NCBI GenBank assembly: GCA_000442015.1 | Contig: KE560580.1 | Span: 1 to 36,823, forward strand | Origin: Rozella allomycis CSF55 | Lineage: Eukaryota | Direction: 5' to 3' | DNA: 36,823 nucleotides | Part shown: piece after piece, positions 877 through 36,223 of the stretch | Position numbering within the stretch: the stretch's first letter is position 1 | How the letters are laid out: each line of letters begins with the position of its first letter | Translations under genes and position numbers: made by a program | The notes under the pieces: generated by a model | The model's input: only the letters and a program-made list of their open reading frames with translations | The model's database searches: none | What the model was told of the DNA's origin: nothing

Positions 877-3800
877 TCAACTCCACTCGAGAACCTTTAG
901 TTTATTCAACATTGAAATAAAGTGCGAATGATTACCGGGCAAGTATTTTAATAGATCGTTGATTAACCTATAAAATTTTTTGGTTGCATTATCCAATTCA
1001 TGTAAAGAAATATCGTGTTTTTCGCATGTGCTGAATTTATTAAAGTTAAAATTGACGAGATCAGCAAGAATGTATCCTGTTTCGTAGAGGGAAGAAATAG
1101 CCAAATCTTCGCTATCAAAGCCGAAATTGTTAACGATTGAAGTATTTGATAATTTCTGAATAAAGATATGATTGTTTGAAGCAGAGTTGAAAGTGAATGA
1201 AGAGTTTAGAATGTTTGAATGGAAATGCAAGGGTTTTGAAGAATGAGAATTAGCGCAGATCAAGTTTAGATGAATATTGATTAGAGATTGAAAAGAAGAT
1301 TGAAATTTGTTTAGAATTGGAATAATTTTTGGTAATTTTCTAGGATGAGGGATGAAAGATCCAAGAATGATGATTAATAGATTTAGATTTGATAATTTGT
1401 TGAATAAGCCTAATTGAATAAAGTAATCTAGAAGAAAAGGATTGAAAATGTAATTTAAAGAAAAGATTAGATTGGATCTTTTTTCAACTTTGAAATTTCT
1501 GTTGATTAATCCTAGGGAATATAAAAGATTTAAAGAAAATAGAAATTGATTGTTACATTGTTCTTTTCCATTTAAAAATGAGAATAATCCATGTTGAGCG
1601 ATATTTGGGTAACACAGTGAAGACGAAGGTAGTGAAGGTAGAGGTAGTCTATCTTTCTCATCATCATTAACCTCTTTATCACCTTTAACTTCTCTATTAA
1701 CCTCTTTATCTTTATCTTTCACTTCTCTACCTTTCACTTCTCTGTCTTTCACTTTGTCGATAAAGTCTAGAACATTGCGTAGATTTAAGATGGGATTCCC
1801 ATTGAGATTGAAAGATTTAAAATTTAATAAATGTTCAATTTTAGTGAAAGAAAATAGATGAGAAAAGATGACGTTACCAGAAATATCAAATCCTCTTCTT
1901 CCAGCTCTGCCAGCCATTTGATTGAACATCATATCATTTAAAGGAAAAAAGTGAGAATCTCTAAGGAACAAGACAGAAGAAGCTGGAATGTGAATACCAA
2001 AAGATAAAGTGCTGGTGCAAATAATAGCCAATAAACAACCTTTTAGAGAGATTGATTGATTGATTACCTTTGCGAGATAAATTTTCAATTTCTAGTCTAA
2101 AGACGATAGAGAGACCGCTGTGATGAATTCCAATACCCCTTGCTAGTAAAGAGAGATGACCAGATTGTTCTAGTTGGGGTTCAATTGATTTCAACATTTT
2201 AATAGTCTAGAATTAAATAAAAGAAATTGAAATACTTTATCAATTAATTTCTTTTTATCAGAGTTTATTTTTGGTAGAGAATATTTAAACAATTCAAATG
2301 CTACTTGTTCACAACCATTTCTACTATTTTCAAATATTATAACTGGCAACTTTTTATTTAAATCTAAATCTATTAAAATTGAATTTAATAATCCATTTTC
2401 TATCATTTTATTAAATGTTAAATTTCTAAAATAATGAAGAAATGTTTGAATTTCATTTAATTCTCTTTTAGATTGGAAAAATAGAAATAAATTTAATGCA
2501 TTTTCATTAATCAATTTTAATCTTTTAATTTCATCTTCATTTAATAAATATTTTTCATTGCAAACATGTGATATTCTATAAAGATCCAAAACATTCAATT
2601 TATTAAACAACTCTACAAATTTATAAGTAGAAGGGTAAGAGTTGGAAGTAGAAGTAGAAGTAGTAGGGTTATTAGAAAGAGTACCACTACATGTATTAAC
2701 TTCATTCCCTCTTTCATCAACTTGATTCCCTCTCGCATCTATTTCATCCCCTCTTGCTTCATTCCCACTTGCCATTAAGTTGGTTAGGTTGGTTGATAAA
2801 TAACAATCTTTAAATGATTTAATTGTTAATCTTTGAATAAACCTCTTAATTTTATCATTCTTATTATCACCCTTTTTGTTTGATAATAAATTTTCAACTC
2901 TTTTTAAAACATTTAATTGAATTTCATTTAGATTAAAATTTAAATATTCTTCAATTAAATAAAAGATGTGATTTTCAAGACAAAAGTTTATTAAATTTAG
3001 AAAATCATTTGCATTTCTTAAATTGCTTTCTAAAACATTCAGAAATGGAATTTTATCAATTAATTTGTTTTTAAAAATTATTTTAAATTGTTCCAACGTT
3101 GATGGATATTTTTTAAAGTAATTAGTGAGAGAAGTAGTAGTAGGGGGAGATGTAGTAGGGGGAGATGTAGTAGTTGAAGTAGCAGTTGTTGAAGTTGAAG
3201 TAGTAGTAGAATGACATGTATCATTGTATGTATCTTTACATGTAGAGTCTTCTTTACAACTTACGGTATCTTTTCCATTCTCTACGTCTTCTAACGCTTT
3301 GAATTCTTTCAAAAGATTGATTGGAATTTCTTCTAGTTTGGATGTAAAAGATGAAGATTTAATTAAAGATTTCAAATGACAAAATAAAATATTTTTAGCT
3401 AAATTAAATTCAATTAAATTATTTTCAAAATTAAAAAGAAAAAAGAAACAATTCCAAAATTCATCAAATGAAAATATTCCACAAAAACACAATTCTATTT
3501 CTAATTCTTTATAAATCTCAAAACAATTTTTATTCTTTAAATTCAAATAAATAAATTCAACAATTTTATCTTTTTTGCTACTAGTATCAACACTTTCAAA
3601 CTTTTTGCCTGTAAATTCTTCATATAGACATTTCAGAAATAGTTTATCTTTGGAATCATTTAATACAAACAAATCTGGATGAAACTCGAAAAAATCTACA
3701 AATGAATTCACATAATAAACAAATGGAACTGGACTTTCAATCATTCTCTTTCTCTTTATCACTTTCTTTACTATGGGAAAACTAAATGCCAATTTCCCCC

Positions 3801-6800
3801 TCAAAATTAATCCCTTGACAAATTCAAATGAGCAATCTACACACTCATTCAATGCACTTAGTGAATTTAATGAAATTAGTGAATTTAAAAATGGAATTGA
3901 TTTAAAATTGTTAAATGATTTTACATTGCTATCATTTGTATCTCTTACATCTCTTGTATTATTTACGTCGCTAATCCCCTCTATGGCATAAAAATCATTC
4001 AAGTGAAGGCTGCATTTCTCTCTACTCTTAACATTCCCATCACACTCATCTTTATTCTCAACATCACTTTCAATCTCAATTAAACTAACTTCTCCTCTAA
4101 ACACCTTCTCAAACACACCATCTCCACTCTCCACCTTTTCCATCTTAATCAACCCCCCACAATAACTATAAAAATTCAACGGAATCACCCTCTTGTCAGT
4201 CTTGATAAAATCAATCACATCATTCTTCATCTCAAATATACTCTTCAGCCAGCCAAAAAATAACTCTTCACTCGTTCCCAACGTTGCTGACAATCCAACA
4301 AACAACACTCCACTAGGGATCATCAATATCATCTTTTCCCATACAATACCCCGCTCTTCATCTTGGATTAAATGGATCTCATCTACTACTACAACCTCAA
4401 ATTCATCGCCTCTGCCATTCTCATAGAATTTTAACACAATCTCTGGAACGGTCACTAGAATTCTCGCTTGTAAATCAATCTTCAAATCATTAGTCAATAT
4501 CCCCACCAAAGGGTTAGAATTATTCCCACTCATTTTATTATCACTCATTCTGTTATCATTCATTTTGTTATCATTAATTATGTTATCATTAATCTTTTTA
4601 TTTAAACCCTCTTTACACCCTTTACACTCTTTAAGATTGAATCTACTGGTCAACTCACAGTACGCTTGATGAACCAATGCTTTCGTTGGACACACATACA
4701 CCACCCTCTTCCCTTCAATCAACCCCTTCTCAACCGCATACATGCCAATCTCAGTCTTTCCATTAGACGTTGGCGCAGATACCAACACACTCCTCTCCCG
4801 ATACAAACTAGCAAACGCTCTCTTCTGGAATTCATCATATTCAAACTTTCTTCTTTTCTTGCTATACTCTCCGGGATATCGGGGTATCTCTCCTCCAGCA
4901 TTAATCTCTATTTTATCGACATTGTATCCCTTTGATACTGCTATCAATCGCTTCTTTTCTTTCTCTGCTTCAACGCTGTTCCTCTTGTTGAATTCTCTTT
5001 TATCTGCTTTGTTTCTCTTTTCATTTCTGAATTTTAAATGCTCAATTGGAAACAAGAACCCATCTGCTTTAGTTTGTTCAACTTTATCATCTTCAATATT
5101 CTCAAAGTTTTTAACTCTACCATCTTCAAAGTTTATAATTTGAATATCAATTAAATTCATTTCACTCAAAAATCGTCTCACTCTTTCATCTTGTAAATTT
5201 CCAGAATAATTCAAACTCATTTCAATAAAAATTGATTCATCAAAATTCATTAAATCATCCACCAAACTTTCATTCTCCTCTTTATTGTTTCTAAAGTTCA
5301 AACATTCATAATACATTAAATAATGATACAATCCCAATTCAATAAACGCCAACAATTCATTCTTCTCTTTTACTTTCTCCTTCACTTTACTCTCTTTCAC
5401 TTTGTTAAAGTTCCCTTGATAAATCAGATATGATGAAACTAGAACATTCCCAAAATACTTTGGAAACCTCAAATTGAAACATTTAAGAAATCTAGCAACT
5501 TTCCACATTAATGGATCACTCGAATCAAACAACTCATCTTCAATTAAAACATTACAAAATTTAGCTTCAACTATTTGTCGTCCTTCATCAACCCTCTCCA
5601 AATTCAAAATTGCATAAACGTGACTTCTTATCTCTCTAAAATAATTCCAATCAAACTCTGAAAACTTCACAAATGGAATTTCAGGCAACCTATTTCTTCC
5701 ATTAAAAAACAAACCAAAATTCCATCTCACATTGCCAACAATTTCCTTTGCTTCTTTTTCATTAACCTCCATCGCCTGCTGAATCAATCTCGTAAGCTTT
5801 TTTCTTTCTCGTCTCTCCACATCTCTAAACAAAACACTCAAATCTGTCGTCTTTTGCCACTTTAAAAAACAAATCACCAATTCAATCTTTTCTCGTCTAC
5901 TCAAATGTCTTTTAAGCGTCAACATTAAATAAAAAGCCTCTAAATCTGAATCTTTCACATAATCATTGCCAACAAGACATCCAAATAGCTTCAACTCTTC
6001 AAGACTACTAAATCCGAATTTATCAATTATCGTCTTTGAATCAAAAAGTCTTCCCTTCAATTCAAAATCTTCAAATCTCAACGACGATAATGGTATATAT
6101 TTAACTCCCATACAGTAATAATCTGAATCTTCGCCCATGCAAAACACATTACAAAATTTATCTCGTTCAATCGTTTTATACAAACTAGATATATAACTAT
6201 CAGCTTCATTAAATGCAAATACAGTCTTAATGTTTAGTCTTTTGCAAACATAATACAATAGTCTATTCGCCATAAACGGTACAAACGTCGCATCTTCCTT
6301 TTCAATAAACGTTCTTTCGCATTTCATTTCTGGTATCTCAATCTTCAACAATTCTTCAACATCTCTCATCTCTTCCTCTCCAACATTCACTTCCTCTACA
6401 CTCTCCTCGACCTTTCCAATCTCATCATCCACCATCTCCTCCGCGCCCTCCCCACCCGTCTCCTTCAACTCCCTCTTCAAAAACCCCTCAAAATCGTCCC
6501 TCCTCTCCCTGCCCCTCTTCACAACAGTCTCCCTCTTAACATCCTCGCTCGCTCCATCAAACACAACCACCACAGCATGCTCCTCCAGCAGCCCGAAAAA
6601 CCACTCGCAATTAACTACAAAATGTCTATAATCGCATCCAAACGACCATCCAACGCCCTGCAGCGGAAGCTGGGAATATTGTAGGTGCCACAGGTAGAAT
6701 ATCACGCTGCTGCCGTCAACTAGTATCAACGATCGCGGCTGTTTTGTTAAGCTTATTAGCTGGCTGTATTCGCGCCGGTTTGCGTGCAGGTACGAATGAA

Positions 6801-6816
6801 GACCTCGGATTCCCAT
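877..6816 (-). CDS. ~1960-aa fusion: N-terminal FEN1/XPG/Asteroid-like PIN nuclease plus DDX60-like Ski2-family DExH helicase
   Basis: ATG 6816 (MGIRGL). Exons 6816-2236, 2206-2068 and 2039-877, with GT-AG introns 2207-2235 (29 nt) and 2040-2067 (28 nt), join three ORFs in frame. Nuclease motifs: LVDGSS, VVFDG, EAD, EDSD, LVGNDY. Helicase motifs: SAPTSNGKT, YVCPTKAL, VVVDEIH, LSAT, PVIIFENSR, RGIGIHHSGL, TSTLSFGIHIPA, QMAGRAGRRGFD. Confidence 0.88.
1660..1755 (-). repeat. Degenerate coding tandem repeat (K/R-E-V-K/N units) in the helicase C-terminal region
   Basis: Protein KVKDREVKGREVKDKDKEVNREVKGDKEVNDD; recurring ctttcacttctct / taacctctttatc on the + strand. Confidence 0.6.
2698..2770 (-). 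repeat. Degenerate ~21-nt coding repeat (GNEARGDEIDARGNQVDERGNEV)
   Basis: Repeated ttcattccctct / tgattccctct / ttcatcccctct units at ~21-nt spacing. Confidence 0.55.
3130..3210 (-). repeat. Thr/Ser/Pro-rich coding repeat (gtagtagggggagat x2 plus gta runs)
   Basis: Two 15-nt copies of gtagtagggggagat; encodes TTTSPPTTSPPTTTS. Confidence 0.65.
4525..4595 (-). repeat. 15-nt degenerate coding repeat (NDNII-NDNKM-NDNRM-SDNKM-SGN) inside helicase RecA1
   Basis: gttatcatt / ttatcact recurring every 15 nt. Confidence 0.6.
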
Positions 6817-7034
6817 GGTTCGAAATTTCTGCTGATTGATTCGATAAGGTTTATCGGAATTTAGTTGGTGATTATGTTTAAGATTATGTTTAAGATAAAA
6901 TTGAGGTGACACAAGTCGTTGAATTTTTACCAGATACAAAAAAATTGCCTGCGATTAATGTAGCCTGATTCATCAAAAGAGAAACCGACAAAAGCGAAAA
7001 TAATATTTCAAGAAGAATAATGATCAAATGCCTT

Positions 7035-8159
7035 TTATTTAGATTCTAATATTTCACGTAGACGGCTGGACTCACGGTCAAAACGTTGTACTTCCAATAA
7101 AAATGATTCACGATTTAAATATCTCTTTAACTGATAATAAAGATGAATAGCTATTTCTTTCAATTCATTGTCGCTCAATTGGGCGCCAGATGTTAACGCT
7201 TCTTTATGGTAGTAAAGAAAATACTTATAAAACTCTGCTATTTGATTCAGTTGATTCATATCACGATACACCTTTAACCCGCTGAAAAAATTGTCAATCA
7301 TTTTCTTCTCTCTTTCCTCCAACGTTTTAAAATCTCTACAGATTTTGTAATTCGGGGGTTCAAGAGGTCCCCCAAGTCTCAACAAGACACGGCCATGAAT
7401 ACAAGGTAGTATTTCTGGCTCACAATTTGATAAAGCCAAATGCCTTAGGTTATTGCCTACATTTCTTAATTTGTAATCAAACTCCATTAGGTAGAATTGA
7501 CTTTTTGCCGATAACCTCGTCCAGTGATATTCAATAAGAATTTGAAACTTTTTTGTGCTTATGAAACTAGTATAATAGAAAATATCCACTAAAGAACTTT
7601 CTTTAAAAACGTTGGCCATAATCAAATGATCCAATACACGTACGCTTGAATACTTTATAATGCACTTTGTGATCGTGAATAGACCGAAACCAGGGAAAAA
7701 ATTGTCTGTCCCGATAACCATTGATGGTCTTAAGATTTTAGATAGAACAAGATCTTCAATTAATTCATCTTGTCGACATATTTTTTCATAGAATTCTGGA
7801 TGGTCAAGATCAGGTTGCTGTAAATGCGGTTTAAAAATTTCAGCGAAATTCAAAATGAAAGGGACCATTTCTAATTCCACCAGATCCTTTAACAAACTCT
7901 TCTTCTGCTCTGGGGAGCTGGGGATCAATTCTCCAAACAAGTCCATAGCCAAGACATCGTTTGCGTAATAAACACGGTGCAAGCATTGTAATTTTTCAAC
8001 TTGTGTATCAAGTTCGTCGAGAATTCTCAAGCCATCATCAAGTTGAACATCTGGAAAGGATAGGATACTCCTGAAACAGTTGTCAACGTCGGTCATGTCC
8101 TGGTCTAGATGTGAACAAAAGATCCCGATAAGAAACAGTAACAAATAATGAGCTTTCAT
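7035..8159 (-). CDS. Intronless putative secreted protein of unknown function (374 aa), effector candidate
   Basis: Long ORF. The ATG at 8159 gives MKAHYLLLFLIGIFCS, a typical signal peptide. No recognised domain; appears mostly helical. Confidence 0.7.
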   Translation of the reverse strand: MKAHYLLLFLIGIFCSHLDQDMTDVDNCFRSILSFPDVQLDDGLRILDELDTQVEKLQCLHRVYYANDVLAMDLFGELIPSSPEQKKSLLKDLVELEMVPFILNFAEIFKPHLQQPDLDHPEFYEKICRQDELIEDLVLSKILRPSMVIGTDNFFPGFGLFTITKCIIKYSSVRVLDHLIMANVFKESSLVDIFYYTSFISTKKFQILIEYHWTRLSAKSQFYLMEFDYKLRNVGNNLRHLALSNCEPEILPCIHGRVLLRLGGPLEPPNYKICRDFKTLEEREKKMIDNFFSGLKVYRDMNQLNQIAEFYKYFLYYHKEALTSGAQLSDNELKEIAIHLYYQLKRYLNRESFLLEVQRFDRESSRLREILESK

Positions 8160-8888
8160 TTTACCAGGGTTGATATTTTTGCAACTTTGTAATTGAATAT
8201 TCGTAAATCTATTTTTAGATTTTTCCGATGAATGCCTTTTCTGCATCATAATAATCCACAATATCAATTTCAAACCTGATTTTATTCAATTCGTAGATTT
8301 ATTCTAAATCACTTAAAGTAAAGGGTATAGAAAACATATTTTGAAATAAACCTATACTTGTAAGCTGCAACCAGTTTAATCCCAAGTGGCCAACCAGGAA
8401 CTTGGACCAGAGCGACAACATTTGAAATGAATCTTCTGGCTGATTAATGTCCCAAGTTTGGTTGCTTCACGGAGACTCTAGACATGTTATTTTTCCGTTT
8501 CTGCATGACATCAACTGGAGGAATGTGTGTATTCTTTGGGTTTCTATAAGTGTACTGTGTATCTCACATGAAGTAAAAGATAAGTTTCACATTAGCAAAA
8601 AATGATGCAATAACGAAAAAATCTGACCTTATTAACATTCAACAAATAACAATCATGAATGGATTTTCCTCTGCTTAATAATCAATATAAAATTTAAATG
8701 TTATATTTGATTCCTAAACTTTTCTCCTAAAATACTTGAAGAACACATTCAATTTTAGTGGTATAAGTTTCCAAATTGATGCTGAACTTTTAATCCACAT
8801 TTTTCTTTAGGAACTTTGCGCCTGTAGTAGGTTTAGTAAAATTATATCATGACGTGGATTTCGCCCGTCAAATTTTAGAAATTTCGAA

Positions 8889-27428: not shown

Positions 27429-30400
27429 TTATTTGTTAGGAGATCTTAATTGCTCTCTAGTGATTGAATCCAATAGATCAACATTTTTGTATGCAAAGGT
27501 ATCTTCAGTTGTGTCGTCGTTGATCGCAAAATCTGGGTTCAATTGTAAATCACTAAATCGTTCATTTCGCACTAATTATTAACAAATATAATCTTTACTG
27601 TCAAAGTAGAATGTATCTTGTTGATTTTCAGGATTTGGAATAAATGGCGGTTCCATATCCAATATTTTATCCCAATTTATACCATCAAAAAATGGATGTT
27701 TTCTTATTTCTTTAAAACAAGGTCTCTTTTTGGGATCCCTGTCAAGCCAACTCAGAATCAGGCTTTTGGCGTTAGGAGAGATATCGATGCCAGTCCAATC
27801 AATTTGTTTAGAAAGAACATTTTTAAAAATTGAATCTGGAGAATTATCAAAGAAAGGAGGATATCCAACCAAGAATTCAAATAGACAAATACCCAATGCC
27901 CACCAATCAGCTTCAGGTCCACTGCTTAAGCCTAAAAGTAATTCAGGAGATAAGTAATCGGGAGTTCCAAGCACTTTACTGTCTGATTTATCATTTCCAT
28001 CAAGCGTGATTTTAGCTAACCCAAAATCAGATAATTTTAAATGGCCATTAGAATCAATAAGCATGTTGTCAGGTTTAATGTCTCTGTGAACAATGGACTG
28101 TGAATGAAGATAATCAAGAGCTAATGCAGCCTGTGCAATATAAAACCTTGCCATTTCTTCTGTAAATTTTCCCATGGCTTGAAGTAATGAGCTTAAATCA
28201 CCACCTATTAAATATTCCATCACCTGAATACACGATTTGAGAATTGATTACCAGATAAAGATATTCTTTAGATTGGAAAGCATAATATAGTTTAACTACG
28301 TATGGATTTCTAGCCAGAGCCAAAACTCTTTTTTCAGCAAGGACACTTGTAACCATATTTTTTCTAACCATGTCAGATTTCTTCAAAACTTTAATTGCGA
28401 AAAGATCCCTTGTTGACTTTTTTTGAGCCAAGTAAACTTTTCCATAGGCGCCTCTTGAAATTGGTTTTAATATTTCAAAGTCTTTAATGCTGATTGTCTT
28501 TTGCCTAAAAGATGGTGAATTTGAATTTTTGAATTTTCCTTGGTTTAGCACGGCGGCAAAAAGAGAAACGAACTTCTTGTCGCCATTCACGGAAGAGTTT
28601 GAAGAACTTTTTGATCTGGATCTCATTTTTCTTGATTGCAAATATTCCAAACAATCTTTTTTCTCTTCCATCTATAATTGAACTTTATTAATCTTACAAT
28701 GTACAAAAGTCTTTCGTAGCTCTTTTTGAGATTGTCAGGCAACAGATCAATTTCTAATTTCAAAATTTGTTTTTTAAGATAATCGAATGAAGATAAGCTG
28801 GAACTTTCGTTGATTGTTTTAGTTGAATACGCGATACTCTCAAGGGAAGTTAAATTTACAATCAAGTTTAATTTATTTTCATCTTTTTCCTTTTTATTAT
28901 TAACTAAATTCTTTTCTTTGGCTAACCAACAAATTAATTGTAATAGGCGCGCATCACAAACCTGAATTTTCTGAATTACTTCTTGTTGCATTGCACATGA
29001 TTTGGAATGATCTTCTATCGAATGGATGGAAAATTTTTCTTCACAAATTCTACAAATTACAGTTTGGTTTAAATTTGAATCAGAATAATTATTCCCAAGT
29101 ACTGATTTTATGCCTTTAAAAAACTTGTATATAAATGGTCTGTCTTTTTTCTTCAAATCATCAAATGATCCAATGGGTGAATTTATTTTCTTTGTCTTTA
29201 ATTCCATTTCATAATCCAATTCTTGAAATGAAATCGAATTATCAAGTTCATCAGCCACAGATTCAGCCTCCTGTTCAGCCACTACTGCGACCTGATCAAT
29301 TAATGTTTCATTTTCTCTATCTAGTTGGCTTTTCATTCTGTCATAAAATACCTATTTTTCCACACAATTTCTTTTACATAAAAATCAATAGTCCGTGCAA
29401 GAGGCGCGATTATCATTAGCATTGCGGTCATTCTATCTTCTGCCTCAACATTGGCAACAGATTTTATCATTTGTTTTTCCATCAAAGCGCTAATCTCAAA
29501 CACAATATTCTTGGATTCCGATTCCACCAATTCTTCCAACGAACACGCTAGCAACCTTCTAGCCAAATGATACATCTTGTCAAAGACGAGCAAATGCACA
29601 GATGAATAAACTGATGGCGGCCAACTTTTAGAAATGTTTGCACTTTTCCCTTCATCCCAACCAGAAATTAATAAATTCAGCTGCATTTTAACAGTTTTAA
29701 GCATTTCCTTCATTTCTTCCCACATATTAGTCAAAACTTGTTCATTTAAAAAGCTTTCCACGTCTTCATCTCCAATCAAATTAAAATTAGAATCATTAGT
29801 CTCTTCATCAAATACACAAACAGGCGACGGTATCGTCAATGGAGTTGGCGGTCTATGCGCCAATCCTAAAACCAAAGGAGACATCTCATTTCCCACTGAA
29901 TATTTTCTTGAAGATCTTCTAGAGCATGTAGCACTTGGTGTTGCAATAGATTCAGAAAATGTCGTCGGTATTGGTTTAACATGCTCTTCAAGAAATCCAC
30001 CTTCACTAATTGCAAGCGGAGATGGGCGACCGTTTGTCAATGATGCTATAGACTCTCTATCAGAATTTTCATTCAATTTAATTGGAGACGCTAGAACTTT
30101 GCTTCTTTCTTTATAAGAATTTGACCTTCGCAATCTATTGGTGGGACCATCCGTACTGGAACTATTAGATTGAGTATCATCTTCAAATCCATGGTGTGAC
30201 TGCGATACCGAATATCTTCTTCCTCCACGCTTCTTTTCCATACAAAATATTTACTTACTTTTGCAGACTCGTCGTCCGATTGACAAATAACATTACTCAG
30301 TGAACTCTTCCGCGATCTATTTTGAATATGAAGGGCGCCCATCGAATGAACAATACTTTCTGATCTTATACTCGGCGACCGAGAATCCAATGAAATCTTT

Positions 30401-30690
30401 CTAAGATTAGGTGAGATTGCTGTTGGCGTGCGAGGTGAAATACTTCCTCTCCCAACGATAGATTTTCTATGAGTCCAAGACGATGCAGTTCCCGTTGGAC
30501 TAGAGTACAGCGGATTTGGTTTATGACTTGGAGTTTTCACGGAACTTTCACTGCCAGTGCCAAAATCTGAAATCGACCCTGTATTTATATGCAAATTGCT
30601 CTTTTTTAAATTATTCTTCTTTTGACTCTCTTTCTTATCTGGGAGAGCTCGCTTTTCCATATTTGGGTCTGTTAGTTCATTGGGAAGCAT
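27429..30690 (-). CDS. Rim15/Cek1/IRE/Greatwall-family AGC Ser/Thr kinase with C2HC zinc finger
   Basis: ATG 30690 in gccaccATG context; VICRICEE...EDHSKSC; ISIKDFEILKPISRGAYGKVYLA, MEYLIGGD, HRDIKPDN, DFGL, GTPDYLSPE; AGC tail PPFIP..DTFYFD..FAYKNVDLL; stop 27429. Confidence 0.9.
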
Positions 30691-30857
30691 GGTGGCGTCA
30701 GCCCTGGATACCTTAACAATCAAAAATCATTTTTTAAAAGCTAAACCTAAAGAATTACAGACAAGATGAAGATATTATAGGTAAATGGAGATAGGAGAAT
30801 TAATCAGTGAATTTAATAGATTAGAATTAATCAGAAGCCAAAGTGTAAAATATCAAG

Positions 30858-33800
30858 TTAAACTAAAACGTTTATTAAAAAATCTAAACATCGGATGTCT
30901 ATTATGGCTTCTTTTTCATTAACTGCGTGATCTACTACAAATAACAACATCTCTTTTGACGATATCATGGTCTTCATTTCATTTATTAGTTTCAAAATAG
31001 CATACAATGATTTTCCGATTGGGACCTTATAATATAGCAATAGTAATTTGATATCATGACAGATCGGTACAACGCCCTTTGGCAACGTGAGCGAGTCGTG
31101 AATGGCAGCAAAGTATGCTTTCACTTCATTTCTGTTATTTTCATAAATTGAGTCGATAAATAATTGCATTTTTATTTCAATTTTCTGAAGAAAATTCCCA
31201 AAGAAACTATTCACAACAGAATCATTAGTGATGTTTTTATATCTTTGCATGTAAATCAAGCTTTTTTCTTTCAGTATCTTTTTGGCAATGAATTCTAATT
31301 CCAGAAACAAAGGCAAGTCAGATGAACGACCCTGGTCAAGTAATTCTCTGTGCAGGTTATCGTAATGAGAATAAATTGTATGTAAATGGGATGGATGGGT
31401 GACTGGTAATTTGAAACACTTTAATTTGTGAATGGGAAGAACGTTGGGCTTAATTTCTACCACGTTAATTTCCAAGGCAGAAAAATCCGTGAGGACCTTA
31501 TTTTCATACATTGGCGAGGATAATTCAATTGATCTTATGGAATCAAGTGGCGGCAACAAAAATGGAGTAATTTTGTAAAAAGAAGAGTTATTTTTTAAAT
31601 TGATTTTAGCTTCAACAGCTACAACTTTACCGGATGATTTTGTGACGAGGCACCGATCTTGTGTTACAGTAGCCCACAAGTGTCTCAATATTTGAAAATG
31701 ATATTGATTATCGTTGGGATATTTGGGATAAACAGGATAGCAGCTAATAAAAAGATGCGCGATAGATTCTCTAGAAGAAACTGAAAGAGTTTTTGATCCA
31801 TTTGAAAGACAAAGAAACCCAAGCGCTAAATGAACGCACATGTGATTTCCATAAGTGAAGTCTTGTTGAATTCTGCCATGCAATACACGACAGCGTCTTA
31901 TCAAGTCTAATTCGCCTGAACCCGCCATGACCAACGAAGCACTCAACAGAATTTGATTAATGCAACTTTTAATAAATATTTTGGAAACTTTTTCTGATAA
32001 AGAAACAGCTTTCTTAATTTTGAATCATTTAATTACCAATAGTTGATGTTATTCTCGTTAGTTTATCAATTGTTTCCAAACAAAACATTTTCCATTCGTT
32101 ATTCAAAGATCCAGCATACTTTATAGAAGAAATAAAAATTAATCCTGTTAAAATTGCAACAAAAGGACAAGTCGATGGGTTTTCTAAAGTCAATTCTTCT
32201 TCAATTTTCCCTAAAATACTTGGAATTTGACTTTTAAGCCACTTTGGGCAAAGTTTAATTGAATCCCATAAAACTAAATAATGATGACACACTCTGAGCA
32301 ATAAAAGATCCGGCCTAATAATAGTCAAATCATACGCAGTTGTGGGTATACTTAATATCTGTGATACAAGGGCATCATTTGTTTTCATAAACATAAAACT
32401 TAATGCCATCATAGCAGCTGGACTTGTAATATCTGTATGAATAAATCCGTTGCCTTTATAGCAAAGTGTACCATTCTGATTTTTCGCAAATGACACTTTG
32501 CCGCCATTTATGCATTTGTCCAATTCTTCTAAAATGTTCAAATCGTCTAATCCAACTACATTTCTACCTAATCCCAACAATGTTAAACCAAGAGAAAATC
32601 CTGCTGATAAAGCATAGCATTCCGCATATCCTCGAAACACATCATTATTAATTTCAGCAGTACTAGATGTAGAAAACATCATTTTATCGTAATTAAAGTT
32701 TCTTTTGATTTCATAAAGCAACATTTCTACCATTCGCCGTTGCCCAGACTCTTGAAACAGAAATCCAATTCCTACAATTGCAGACATGGCCACAAAATTA
32801 GAAGCTAAATTAGTTTGATTTTCTATCGTGGTAAATGAAGGAATATGAATAGAACAAAGTTTGGTGATTTTATTATCCATAGTCTTTCTTTTAGAAAATG
32901 ATAGCCCAATTAGCAGGCCAATATTAACAATTTCAACATTTGATGCCATGTATTGATAAATATCAACAGTAGACAAATTCAAGTAACCCAATAGACCTAA
33001 ACCAAACAGAAAACCTGCATGGTGCGCATTCAATTCATCCTTCAATTTATGCGCTATGATCCAAGAACTTTCAATGTCTTTATTCTCTGCAATCATTTGA
33101 AATGCAGTGGCAACTCCATTATGAAATTTTGGCCATTGGAAATAATCTGCAGCGAAATTGGCTTCTTGCAGATGAAACGGTATTTTGCTTGTTGGATAAA
33201 CAAGAGAATAATCCAAGAGTTCCTTTTTAATCATTTCCCTGTTTTTGATTATTTTTGTTTTAAAATTTATTGCAGATCTTCCAATGGGTAACGCTAAGGT
33301 TCTTTGAGCAACCAAAATCGCCACATTGGCTTGAACTTCAGGGGATTGTGCATCAGTCTCTGAGAGCGACCATTTCACTGGCTTTGAAGATTTTAGCATT
33401 TCAATACACTCCTCAACTCGGCAGTCGTCAGGGAAAAGTTTCGCTACCAATTTCATCATAGCATTCTCATTCTCTTCTTCTTTTTGTCCATTTTGTTCAT
33501 TCCAAACAGAATTCATATCTGTCACTATCACATTCTTTGCTTCATCTTCAAAAATAAAGGATTCTTTGTTGCAAAAGTCTAACTATTTACCCAAAAATTC
33601 AAACTCTTCACTTCCTTCTTTCATATTGCGAAAACATACAATAATCCTAATCAGAATATCAAGTGGTAAATCTTCCTTTTTTATGCCATTGTCTCTTAAA
33701 ATAGGTATCCCACTTTGTCCGTCATCTCTTAACGCATTTATTAGTTTTCCAAGTGGAGTTAATCCATTCACTTTATCATATATTATATAACTTTCCATTT

Positions 33801-35164: not shown

Positions 35165-36223
35165 TTATTTAGTATTAGTTGATGCTAATTTTTGGTGGGT
35201 ACCCTTTGAGTTGATGCTACCATCTTTATTTTCAAAGTGCTTATCGATAAAGACACCCAATGTTATTAATTTGCTACCTATAATAGGTACTAATGTAGCT
35301 ATCTCGCGCACAGTACCAAATATTAGTAAATGACCTAAACCAAATGTTCCGACCAAGTAATACATGAAAGGAACTGCCGTGTACATACCCAAATCGTCAT
35401 ATAATATGTTAAGGATGTAATCAGTGAAAAATATAATTGTCGAAGAGTAAAGAAGACACGTTTCCAGTCCCAGCCTAAACAATATCTGGGGTTTGATGCC
35501 AGAGACCATACCAAGTTTTCCTGCGCGGGTCCTGGCTGTGAAAAGATGAAGAAAGCTGTAAGCACCGAGGAGCAAATTTGATGCTCCAAATAAAGTCATG
35601 TAACCGACTTCCACATATGAATACGGATAATTGTACACATTTGTATAACACAGTAGATTTGAATAAATATAGATAGGAGGCTCGATATCAGACGGTAGAC
35701 TAAGTTGCAAAGCGATAAGAATCAATGAAGGACAGAAAGATAGAATAGATGCAGTGAACCACATTGCTGGATGGGAAGCAAATAGATAGGAGATCGTATT
35801 CTTTAGAGTTGATTTACCACGGGATGATATCAAGCTTTGAAAAATGACAATATTACAGCAGAAGCCCATGGGAAACGAGGCCATGCTGGCGTAATGGAAG
35901 TATGTTGTAATAGTATAGCATCCCTGCTTGGTATATATCCGGTAATCAAAGCTTTTACCTAATTAAAAGATATTTGATTTCGTACCAGGATAGCCGAAAT
36001 TGTTGTTCACAAAGATAGAATAAAAGGCAGTTACTGCAGTCCCAAAGTTGATTAAAAGGATAATAATTGCCATTGTAATAGTGGTTGGTAAGATTGGCGA
36101 TGGTTTTACCCGATTCTTCCAGGATTGAAACGCTAGACGAAATGTGGCTATAAGCAGCAAAATTGCACAAATAGAAGATATGAAATGCGTCGCGCCAACT
36201 AGAATGACATACCAAAGTTCCAT
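35165..36223 (-). CDS. Orphan seven-transmembrane GPCR-like protein (343 aa)
   Basis: The 27-nt intron 35959-35985 joins two ORFs. Seven hydrophobic segments; Cys at the start of TM3 (GCY) and in ECL2 (LLCY); TM7 ends GLGHLLIFGT. Confidence 0.72.

Follow-up and report, generated by a model that had tools for sequence, protein, structure and literature searches.

The locus considered in this work raises the question of whether one eukaryotic gene encodes, in a single chain, a nuclease of the Asteroid type with an intact active site and a helicase related to DDX60, and how such a protein would be connected with DDX60 itself. The window analysed is the whole stretch of 36,823 nucleotides (nt) of contig KE560580.1 of Rozella allomycis CSF55. 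The gene lies on its minus strand with the coding sequence, stop codon included, at 6816..877, exactly as it had been delimited in an earlier note made from the same letters. We consider it rather probable that the product is a stem DDX60-like nuclease-helicase which has retained an ancestral active nuclease and acts as a single-chain unwind-and-cut enzyme, the activity itself being predicted.

The reading frame begins with the ATG at 6816..6814, which is the first methionine of a stop-to-stop frame (2191..6954) with 1587 open codons, and the protein starts with MGIRGL. Exon 1 (6816..2236, minus strand, 4581 nt) consists of 1527 stop-free codons and carries, in one uninterrupted frame, the nuclease, a linker, the first RecA lobe (RecA1), an insertion between the RecA lobes and the start of the second lobe (RecA2). 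The chance of a stop-free run as long as this exon, computed from the base composition, is about 10^-64. Since the nuclease, linker, RecA1 and insertion are all found within exon 1, the fusion is independent of any splice. The remaining parts, on the same strand, are a 29-nt GT..AG intron (2235..2207), exon 2 (2206..2068; residues 1528-1573 plus 1 nt), which holds the motif GIGIHHSGL, a second GT..AG intron of 28 nt (2067..2040), and exon 3 (2039..880, stop at 879..877; residues 1574-1960), which holds motifs V and VI. The spliced coding sequence of three exons and two mini-introns gives 1960 residues with a single terminal stop, in agreement with the one spliced frame of about 1960 residues that the earlier note had described. 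Judged from the sequence, the locus is a genuine single gene of the Rozella allomycis nucleus, and its product is a 1960-residue nuclease-helicase. The public annotation of the same gene (P0003, 1678 residues, Rozella allomycis 'P-loop containing nucleoside triphosphate hydrolase domain-containing protein') has intron 1 in common with the present model and uses different 3' splice sites thereafter, the 28-nt intron 2 being that of the present model and of the earlier note. The longer second intron of P0003 deletes helicase motif V (TSTLSFGIHIPA); the model also lacks a DDX60-like segment that follows motif VI, and it stops about 230 residues short of the end of the 1960-residue model. The 1960-residue model is preferred because the segments that P0003 removes align with P0004 (a metagenomic protein described below), with kDDX60 and with the DDX60 profile, and the public 3' end of P0003 appears to be mis-spliced.

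The nuclease core was delimited by hidden Markov model (HMM) matches, conserved columns and predicted fold to residues 1-372 (5701..6816, minus strand). Its motifs are MGIRGL (residue 1), LVDG (32), VVFDG (84), KRETVVKR (94), NEAD (203), GEDSD (228) and GNDY (283), so that every motif quoted in the earlier note for a full FEN-like active site was recovered. The seven carboxylates of FEN/EXO1 are all kept (D34, D87, E204, D206, D230, D232, D285), together with K94 and R101 of the arch. The domain stands at the extreme N-terminus, with the MGIRGL start, the arch Lys/Arg and the helix-two-turn-helix (H2TH) motif GNDY at residue 283 all found in place. An HMM built from 45 stand-alone Asteroid-like proteins, with the Rozella protein left out, matched residues 1-478 with 202 bits (E-value 1e-62). 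In an alignment of 61 sequences (Rozella residues 1-420 and 60 matches of a phmmer search), D87, D230, D232 and D285 are invariant, and at least 90% of the sequences agree on G2, D34, K94, R101, E204 and D206; all of these residues are present in Rozella. The profile of this alignment matched, among solved structures, human EXO1 (1.5e-13) and also Rad2, GEN1, FEN1 and XPG, and it pairs the Rozella-type motifs with VFDG, YEAD and EDSD of EXO1.

The fold of the domain, predicted by AlphaFold2, has a mean predicted local distance difference test (pLDDT) score of 80 and is low only in an acidic stretch and past residue 373. Compared with FEN1 and EXO1 it gave a Foldseek probability of 1.0 and an E-value of about 1e-8, and in VIA-align a Z-score of 21.8 for EXO1 (rmsd 3.4 Å, i.e. 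root-mean-square deviation, over 282 residues) and of 20.8 for FEN1. The profile and structure comparison that had been proposed for the N-terminus thus came out in favour of a FEN-like nuclease. The structural matches listed for this model (50 entries in the VIA list, and the Foldseek rows) do not include kDDX60, a result that is uninformative on the fold of kDDX60. In a language-model Atlas the nuclease domain adjoins clusters with the Asteroid, FAM120A and XPG families, and the source database lists for the Rozella protein the Pfam family PF27242, which the Atlas output names FAM120A. In sequence and predicted fold, the N-terminus is a complete 5'-nuclease domain of the Asteroid type, in the FEN/EXO1/XPG superfamily, with every catalytic residue in place.

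Relatives of this domain were collected by phmmer with residues 1-650 among 1.84 billion representative proteins (E-value at most 1e-3). The 93 proteins matched (best E-value 1e-15) all have lengths of 95-1382 residues, in line with the earlier statement that Asteroid-like proteins are normally stand-alone, and their identity to the Rozella domain is about 31-35% over the matched stretches. When ten of these matches were scanned with Pfam, seven carried XPG_N, XPG_I or XPG_I_2 and three carried no family. The nearest named stand-alone relatives belong to distant eukaryotes, a malawimonad and a copepod, so that there is nothing to indicate that the domain was recently acquired from an Asteroid of a closely related fungus. 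A word-based homologue search with residues 1-420 returned solely the Rozella protein itself. Another Asteroid-like fusion was seen in P0072 (1382 residues), one of the seven and one of the two long matches that were scanned, where XPG_N and XPG_I at the N-terminus are joined to a C-terminal Rubicon homology domain (E-value 4e-59).

Two regions attached to the nuclease have a different character. At the helical arch there is an acidic, poorly predicted stretch of about 70 residues (approximately residues 107-178; 6283..6498, minus strand), recognised by a gap against the Asteroid HMM and by its pLDDT, which is below 50 for residues 139-173. The core of this stretch, about 56 residues long, is extra sequence that the stand-alone Asteroid proteins do not have. 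Between the nuclease core and the helicase, residues 373-640 (4897..5700, minus strand) were characterised by HMM, Pfam and hhalign: residues 373-478 still align to the Asteroid profile and the remainder is without a match. Pfam gave no match for residues 373-640, and hhalign of residues 380-660 against the full-length Asteroid and the DDX60 N-terminal profiles was not significant.

The helicase begins with RecA1 (residues 645-869; 4210..4884, minus strand), which contains motifs I (APTSNGKT, residue 681), Ia (PTKALVHQ, 710), II (DEIH, 812) and III (SAT, 843) and matches Pfam DEAD at residues 662-847 (E-value 1.5e-22). It also has an Asn-rich low-complexity insert at about residues 732-768. 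The motifs GIGIHHSGL (1551), TLSFGIHIPA (1584) and QMAGRAGRRGFD (1614) follow in exons 2 and 3, where a weak Helicase_C match was obtained in exon 3; all the ATPase and translocation motifs of superfamily 2 (SF2) helicases are accordingly present in the 1960-residue model. Against solved structures, RecA1 alone is matched best by FRH/Mtr4 (about 1e-23), with kDDX60 at 4.7e-11. For exon 3, with motifs V, VI and the part beyond, kDDX60 is the best solved-structure match (5.3e-8), and the alignment extends past motif VI. An Atlas search with residues 420-1528 gave generic DEAD-helicase clusters only.

Between the lobes lies an insertion of about 640 residues (residues 870-1509; 2290..4209, minus strand), which is AT-rich (26% GC) and of low complexity. 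It was counted as coding because the frame stays open throughout, the chance of finding no stop being about 10^-26. Runs of Asn, Lys, Ser and Thr are frequent in it. P0004 has about 1240 residues at the same site and DDX60 about 260-330. A comparison of the Rozella and P0004 insertions was not significant, and only the last 30-40 or so residues of both resemble DDX60, and that weakly (for Rozella E-value 4.6e-4, probability 33%). After RecA2 the region in exon 3 is DDX60-like to about residue 1791 and is followed by a tail without a match. In hhalign this region gave an E-value of 1.2e-3 (probability 19%) against the DDX60 C-terminal profile and P0004 gave 3e-4, whereas two Ski2-like C-termini used as controls gave 0.34-0.36.

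The relationship of the helicase was examined with a DDX60 collection, for which P0011 served as query: among the best 120 matches, 84 had 1550-1950 residues, and 32 were kept after pairs with more than 60% identity had been removed. With the DDX60 HMM built from these 32, P0004 scored 290.9 bits and the Rozella protein 229.6 bits, against 155-180 bits for five Ski2/HelY/Brr2-like proteins, and the Rozella match reaches residue 1791, well beyond the end of the matches of those five. In a quick maximum-likelihood tree of RecA1 and RecA2 (53 rows), Rozella, P0004 and all DDX60 proteins form one clade with a support of 96 in the Shimodaira-Hasegawa-like approximate likelihood ratio test (SH-aLRT), and canonical DDX60 has 99. 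For a more careful tree the rows were reduced to 36 by dropping P0027 and P0028, whose branches are very long, and 15 of the canonical DDX60 proteins. Here the clade of P0004, Rozella and canonical DDX60 has a support of 98/95, canonical DDX60 by itself has 100/99, and the group bearing the DSHCT domain has 95/93. That domain (PF08148) was not matched in the Rozella protein, either by the Pfam scan or in the family list of the database. The helicase belongs to the DDX60 lineage and branches below all canonical DDX60 proteins. The phylogeny that the earlier note had proposed thus puts Rozella inside the DDX60-inclusive clade and outside canonical DDX60, and its assignment of a DDX60-type helicase, and not a Ski2/Mtr4-like one, is upheld by both HMM scores and tree.

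Canonical DDX60 itself carries a related domain at its N-terminus. Pfam PF23002, 'PIN-like_DDX60', was found N-terminally in the scanned DDX60 proteins of Xenopus laevis, Branchiostoma and the fungus Entrophospora candida and in two further records; of the 120 best DDX60 matches, 101 have it in their family lists, and an XPG, Asteroid or FAM120A family is absent from the lists of all 120. The Rozella protein has the full Asteroid domain in this place and gave no match to PF23002, at an E-value of up to 1 for the exon-1 protein and of up to 10 for the first 420 residues. When the PIN-like region of 30 non-redundant DDX60 proteins was compared by hhalign with the Asteroid alignment, the probability was 92.4% (E-value 5.2e-7), and 91.6% without the Rozella row; the alignment pairs FlIDGDSLL with LvIDGnsL, gGQ.LH with fGGdYd and IVFF with vvfDG. 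At an E-value of at most 1e-3, the Asteroid-only HMM matched 13 of 123 DDX60-like proteins. One of these is P0004, and the other 12 (11 that are named DDX60 or bear PF23002, and P0006) match over HMM positions 26-83 only, in a segment that lies within their PIN-like domain or where this domain would be expected. In P0006, a DDX60-like protein of 2178 residues, a degenerate PIN-like domain (FIIIDG...VVFAG) was seen to begin near residue 350, behind an N-terminal extension.

The catalytic positions have fared unequally in these proteins. Among 28 DDX60 sequences with a residue at the first catalytic Asp, 24 have D and 3 have E. The equivalent of D87, on the other hand, is Phe in 29 of the 30 non-redundant sequences, and none of the acidic columns downstream of that position reaches a conservation of 70% among the 30. 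As the first Asp is kept, D87 has become Phe and the later acidic columns are lost, canonical DDX60 would therefore carry a catalytically dead remnant of the same domain, and the statement in the earlier note that DDX60 has a degenerate PIN-like N-terminus was correct. A second colinear block, in which DDX60 residues of about 325-425 align with the C-terminal domain of Asteroid (E-value 0.0017, probability 15.6%), is suggestive only. Taken together, the alignments suggest that what animal DDX60 carries as a dead PIN-like domain was once an Asteroid-type nuclease.

P0004 may be regarded as the second fused example. It is a metagenomic protein of 2618 residues and the nearest helicase in the 5.8-billion-entry collection (36% identity over RecA1); the identity of the two helicases is 36-40%, and the next matches are HelY-like proteins and two DDX60-like proteins. 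P0004 begins without a methionine at ...LVGNDYLSDD, i.e. at the H2TH motif, and is 5'-truncated. Its first 570 residues are colinear with the Asteroid profile from the H2TH motif to the C-terminal domain (hhalign probability 94.3%, E-value 1e-7), and the helicase comes after them; the Asteroid HMM gave two matches in the right order. The source of P0004 is GC-rich and, by composition, unrelated to Rozella. Rozella kept the nuclease, as far as its residues indicate, and the organism behind P0004 probably did so as well. A scan of metagenomes for the contig of P0004 found no relative. A second metagenome scan, with the alignment of Rozella and P0004, gave five loci with 23-40% identity in the best segment, which were taken for ordinary helicases.

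We hypothesize that an Asteroid-like nuclease became fused ahead of a Ski2-like helicase and that this fusion would have founded the DDX60 lineage. The active site would later have been lost in canonical DDX60 of animals, other fungi, algae and protists, leaving the 'PIN-like_DDX60' domain. The earlier note had left open an ancestral-type or an independently fused enzyme; the first alternative is favoured by the homology of the DDX60 PIN-like domain to Asteroid and by the remnant in P0004, and independent fusion is disfavoured. Ski2-like helicases move 3'->5' on single strands, and FEN-like nucleases need a free 5' end or a flap threading under the arch. Cleavage by the latter uses two metals held by seven carboxylates, with the free N-terminus (Gly2) at the active site. 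The Rozella helicase may load on a 3' single-stranded tail and translocate 3'->5' like other Ski2-like helicases, and this movement would peel off the opposite strand or deliver a 5' end or flap to the nuclease arch. The nuclease would then cut by two-metal chemistry, which would make the protein a single-chain unwind-and-cut enzyme; an N-terminal nuclease tethered to a 3'->5' motor would suit unwinding from a 3' tail and cutting of the displaced 5' strand. The substrate may be structured RNA or RNA:DNA hybrids, in the surveillance of viral, transposon or aberrant transcripts. Such a substrate is somewhat more likely than DNA and is the least secure step of the proposal: the leaning comes from the kinship with DDX60, and the best structural relatives of the nuclease, which act on DNA, speak for DNA. 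Fungi have no interferon system. It is possible, and we put it forward tentatively, that the whole DDX60 superfamily began as a nuclease-helicase, that Rozella shows the ancestral active state and that the enzyme of this early-diverging fungal parasite is a self-contained effector of defence or surveillance.

Several observations weigh against this proposal. Conserved residues are no proof of activity, so catalysis is predicted, and threading might be changed or prevented by the acidic insertion, about 56 residues long, in the arch. The local Pfam matches of the nuclease are below the cut-offs (XPG_N 14.1 bits, E-value 0.068, cut-off 22; XPG_I_2 12 bits, E-value 0.15, cut-off 24.2), and residues 480-640 have no detectable match to the Asteroid C-terminal domain. 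Rozella is the single complete example, P0004 being 5'-truncated, and the two mini-introns and the single messenger RNA of Rozella are inferred from sequence and homology. A look through sequencing runs listed no RNA run with the locus, and one metatranscriptome run labelled with the same species contained next to none of its sequence words. On the side of the helicase, the C-terminal similarity to DDX60 is weak (probability 19%), and the DDX60-specific middle and C-terminal families PF26076 and PF26167 are not in the list of the source database for this protein. In the careful tree the position of Rozella as sister to canonical DDX60 is weakly supported (73/37) and its branch is long (1.6 changes per column). 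The outgroups are few (five DSHCT-bearing, one Brr2-like and four bacterial proteins), and the core regions were excised with sub-HMMs derived from DDX60.

These points bear on other explanations of the same gene. An assembly chimera, or two adjacent genes merged by a wrong model, could be suspected from the GC content and skew, which vary along the gene, and from a splicing model that rests on sequence and homology. However, the junctions of nuclease, linker and RecA1 lie inside one continuous frame of 1527 codons where splicing is not needed, the same order of parts occurs in P0004 from an unrelated GC-rich organism, and the change in composition coincides with the low-complexity insertion and not with a domain junction, which makes an artefact very improbable. 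If the architecture is real, the nuclease could still be inactive, with catalysis confined to the helicase. The domain would then bind nucleic acid or act as a scaffold, the role assumed for its counterparts in canonical DDX60, Mkt1 and FAM120A. Several FEN-like relatives are reported as RNA-binding or regulatory proteins without nuclease function, among them Mkt1 and FAM120A, the latter being described as an RNA-binding protein; PF27242, listed for Rozella, is named FAM120A, and the arch region holds the large acidic insertion. Yet the seven carboxylates, the arch Lys/Arg, Gly2 and the H2TH motif are all retained in Rozella, whereas canonical DDX60 swapped the second Asp for Phe and lost the rest. 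Retention despite deep divergence, at about 31-35% identity to stand-alone relatives, argues for selection on catalysis, and we regard an inactive module as unlikely.

The fusion might also have taken place independently of DDX60, in the lineage of Rozella and P0004, with the DDX60 PIN-like domain being of other origin. This would agree with the position of both proteins outside the canonical clade and with the missing PF23002 match and PF26076 and PF26167 listings in Rozella. It would also fit a DDX60-Asteroid similarity that is confident over only about 60-90 residues, the second colinear block being weak (probability 15.6%, E-value 0.0017). Nevertheless, the helicase cores of both proteins group with DDX60 in one clade (98/95), and the PIN-like domain occupies the same N-terminal position and aligns with the Asteroid N-terminus motif by motif, through IDG, GG-x-Y/L and the hydrophobic strand before D87, at 92%. 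The same two partners fused twice in the same order in sister lineages would be less parsimonious, and we regard a separate origin as unlikely. Somewhat less unlikely, though still doubtful, is an enzyme of DNA repair or replication, in which the helicase opens DNA and the Asteroid/EXO1-like nuclease trims flaps or ends. ASTE1 cuts DNA overhangs in end-joining, and the Ski2-like proteins Hel308, Pol theta and ASCC3, which act on DNA, appear among the exon-3 matches. The best structural matches of the nuclease are the DNA nucleases EXO1, FEN1, XPG/Rad2 and GEN1. ASTE1 is also tabulated in a review of structure-specific nucleases in genome dynamics (PMC11574390). The helicase, however, groups with DDX60 and not with Hel308-type proteins, and its best solved exon-3 match is kDDX60 (7ase, 7ask), entries that are ribosome complexes; DDX60, too, is described as an RNA helicase.

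The combination of a PIN-like domain with the DDX60 helicase is already known through Pfam, where the family name records the PIN-like nature. New in this analysis are the proposed derivation of the domain specifically from Asteroid, a deep-branching member with a complete active site and a second stem lineage in which the parts are arranged alike. No paper linking DDX60 to a PIN-like, XPG, Asteroid or FAM120A domain was found in the literature as far as its text was available, and the DDX60 passages seen in PMC8195603 concern other fusions. The accessible part of the classification of PIN-like domains (PMC5499597) gives the function of Asteroid as unknown and does not mention DDX60-type helicases, and an antiviral role is reported for a stand-alone Asteroid in a silkworm study (PMC10298989). 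DDX60 is a much-cited interferon-induced antiviral helicase whose long N-terminal region is without an assigned function. The Rozella locus would give this region an origin, in an Asteroid-type 5'-nuclease, and an extant protein whose nuclease still has the look of a working enzyme. If this is true, the PIN-like domain of animal antiviral DDX60 would be a fossil nuclease, while the Rozella enzyme would degrade what it unwinds. It now becomes testable whether ancestral DDX60 was a nuclease-helicase and what role the dead domain has in animals, for example in binding 5' ends or flaps.

The surroundings of the gene were scanned with Pfam. The downstream neighbour is a ubiquitin-conjugating enzyme, and further along there are Sec23/24, ODAD1, Svf1 and PP4R3. 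No Pfam family (E-value at most 1e-3) was found for the upstream open reading frame at 7038..8285 (minus strand) or for those at 29333-33582 and 35165-35962. The neighbours are ordinary housekeeping or eukaryotic genes, and nothing in the surroundings suggests a mobile element or a defence cluster. In the ubiquitin-conjugating-enzyme gene an in-frame 27-nt GT..CAG intron candidate was seen at about 436-462 of the window (minus strand), and its removal restores a sequence that we take to be typical of UBC12-like enzymes. Introns in the window thus look extremely short, at 27-29 nt with GT..AG ends (about 436-462, 2207-2235 and 2040-2067, minus strand). The GC skew of the plus strand is -0.34 to -0.56 across 4001-7000, the 5' half of the nuclease-helicase gene, and +0.25 across 1001-2000, a pattern ascribed to purine-rich codons in the conserved domains as against pyrimidine-rich codons in the C-terminal part.

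Among known systems, DDX60 and DDX60L are the nearest to the Rozella protein. As in Rozella, an N-terminal PIN-type domain is followed by a long linker and by a DExH Ski2-like core whose RecA lobes are separated by an insertion, a DDX60-like region comes after RecA2, and the cores form one clade. Homologues are found in algae, protists and fungi, Entrophospora candida among the latter, and the trypanosomatid one is kDDX60. In contrast to canonical DDX60, which keeps the first Asp only, Rozella has a full nuclease with intact active site, arch and H2TH motif, lacks the PF23002 match and the PF26076/PF26167 listing, has a longer inter-RecA insertion and branches below the canonical clade. With Asteroid/ASTE1 (Pfam XPG_I_2) and FAM120A-C it shares MGIRGL, IDG, FGxDY, VFDG, the K..T...R arch, EAD, DSD and GNDY. 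Those proteins, however, are stand-alone and of about 600-800 residues, none of the 93 phmmer matches is long enough for an added helicase, and Rozella differs further in its acidic arch insertion and in having no detectable Asteroid C-terminal domain. FEN1, EXO1, XPG (Rad2) and GEN1 have the fold and the seven-carboxylate two-metal site in common with it, but the identity is 13-18%, the Pfam XPG models are sub-threshold and a fused helicase is found in none of these nucleases. With Ski2, Mtr4 and HelY the likeness lies in the DExH core, and RecA1 alone fits FRH/Mtr4 best, whereas the Rozella protein has no DSHCT domain and is separated in the tree from the DSHCT-bearing group. Cas3, with an HD nuclease and an SF2 helicase, Dna2 and Hef are other single-chain nuclease-helicases. 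PhoH2, in which a PIN RNase is joined to a PhoH helicase, unwinds and then cuts, according to Matelska et al. 2017 (PMC5499597). The logic shared with PhoH2, Cas3, Dna2 and Hef is that a motor unwinds and a nuclease cuts the displaced strand; the domain families and lineages are unrelated, so the likeness is a functional analogy only. The Rozella protein would add a eukaryotic member to this small set of single-chain unwind-and-cut enzymes.

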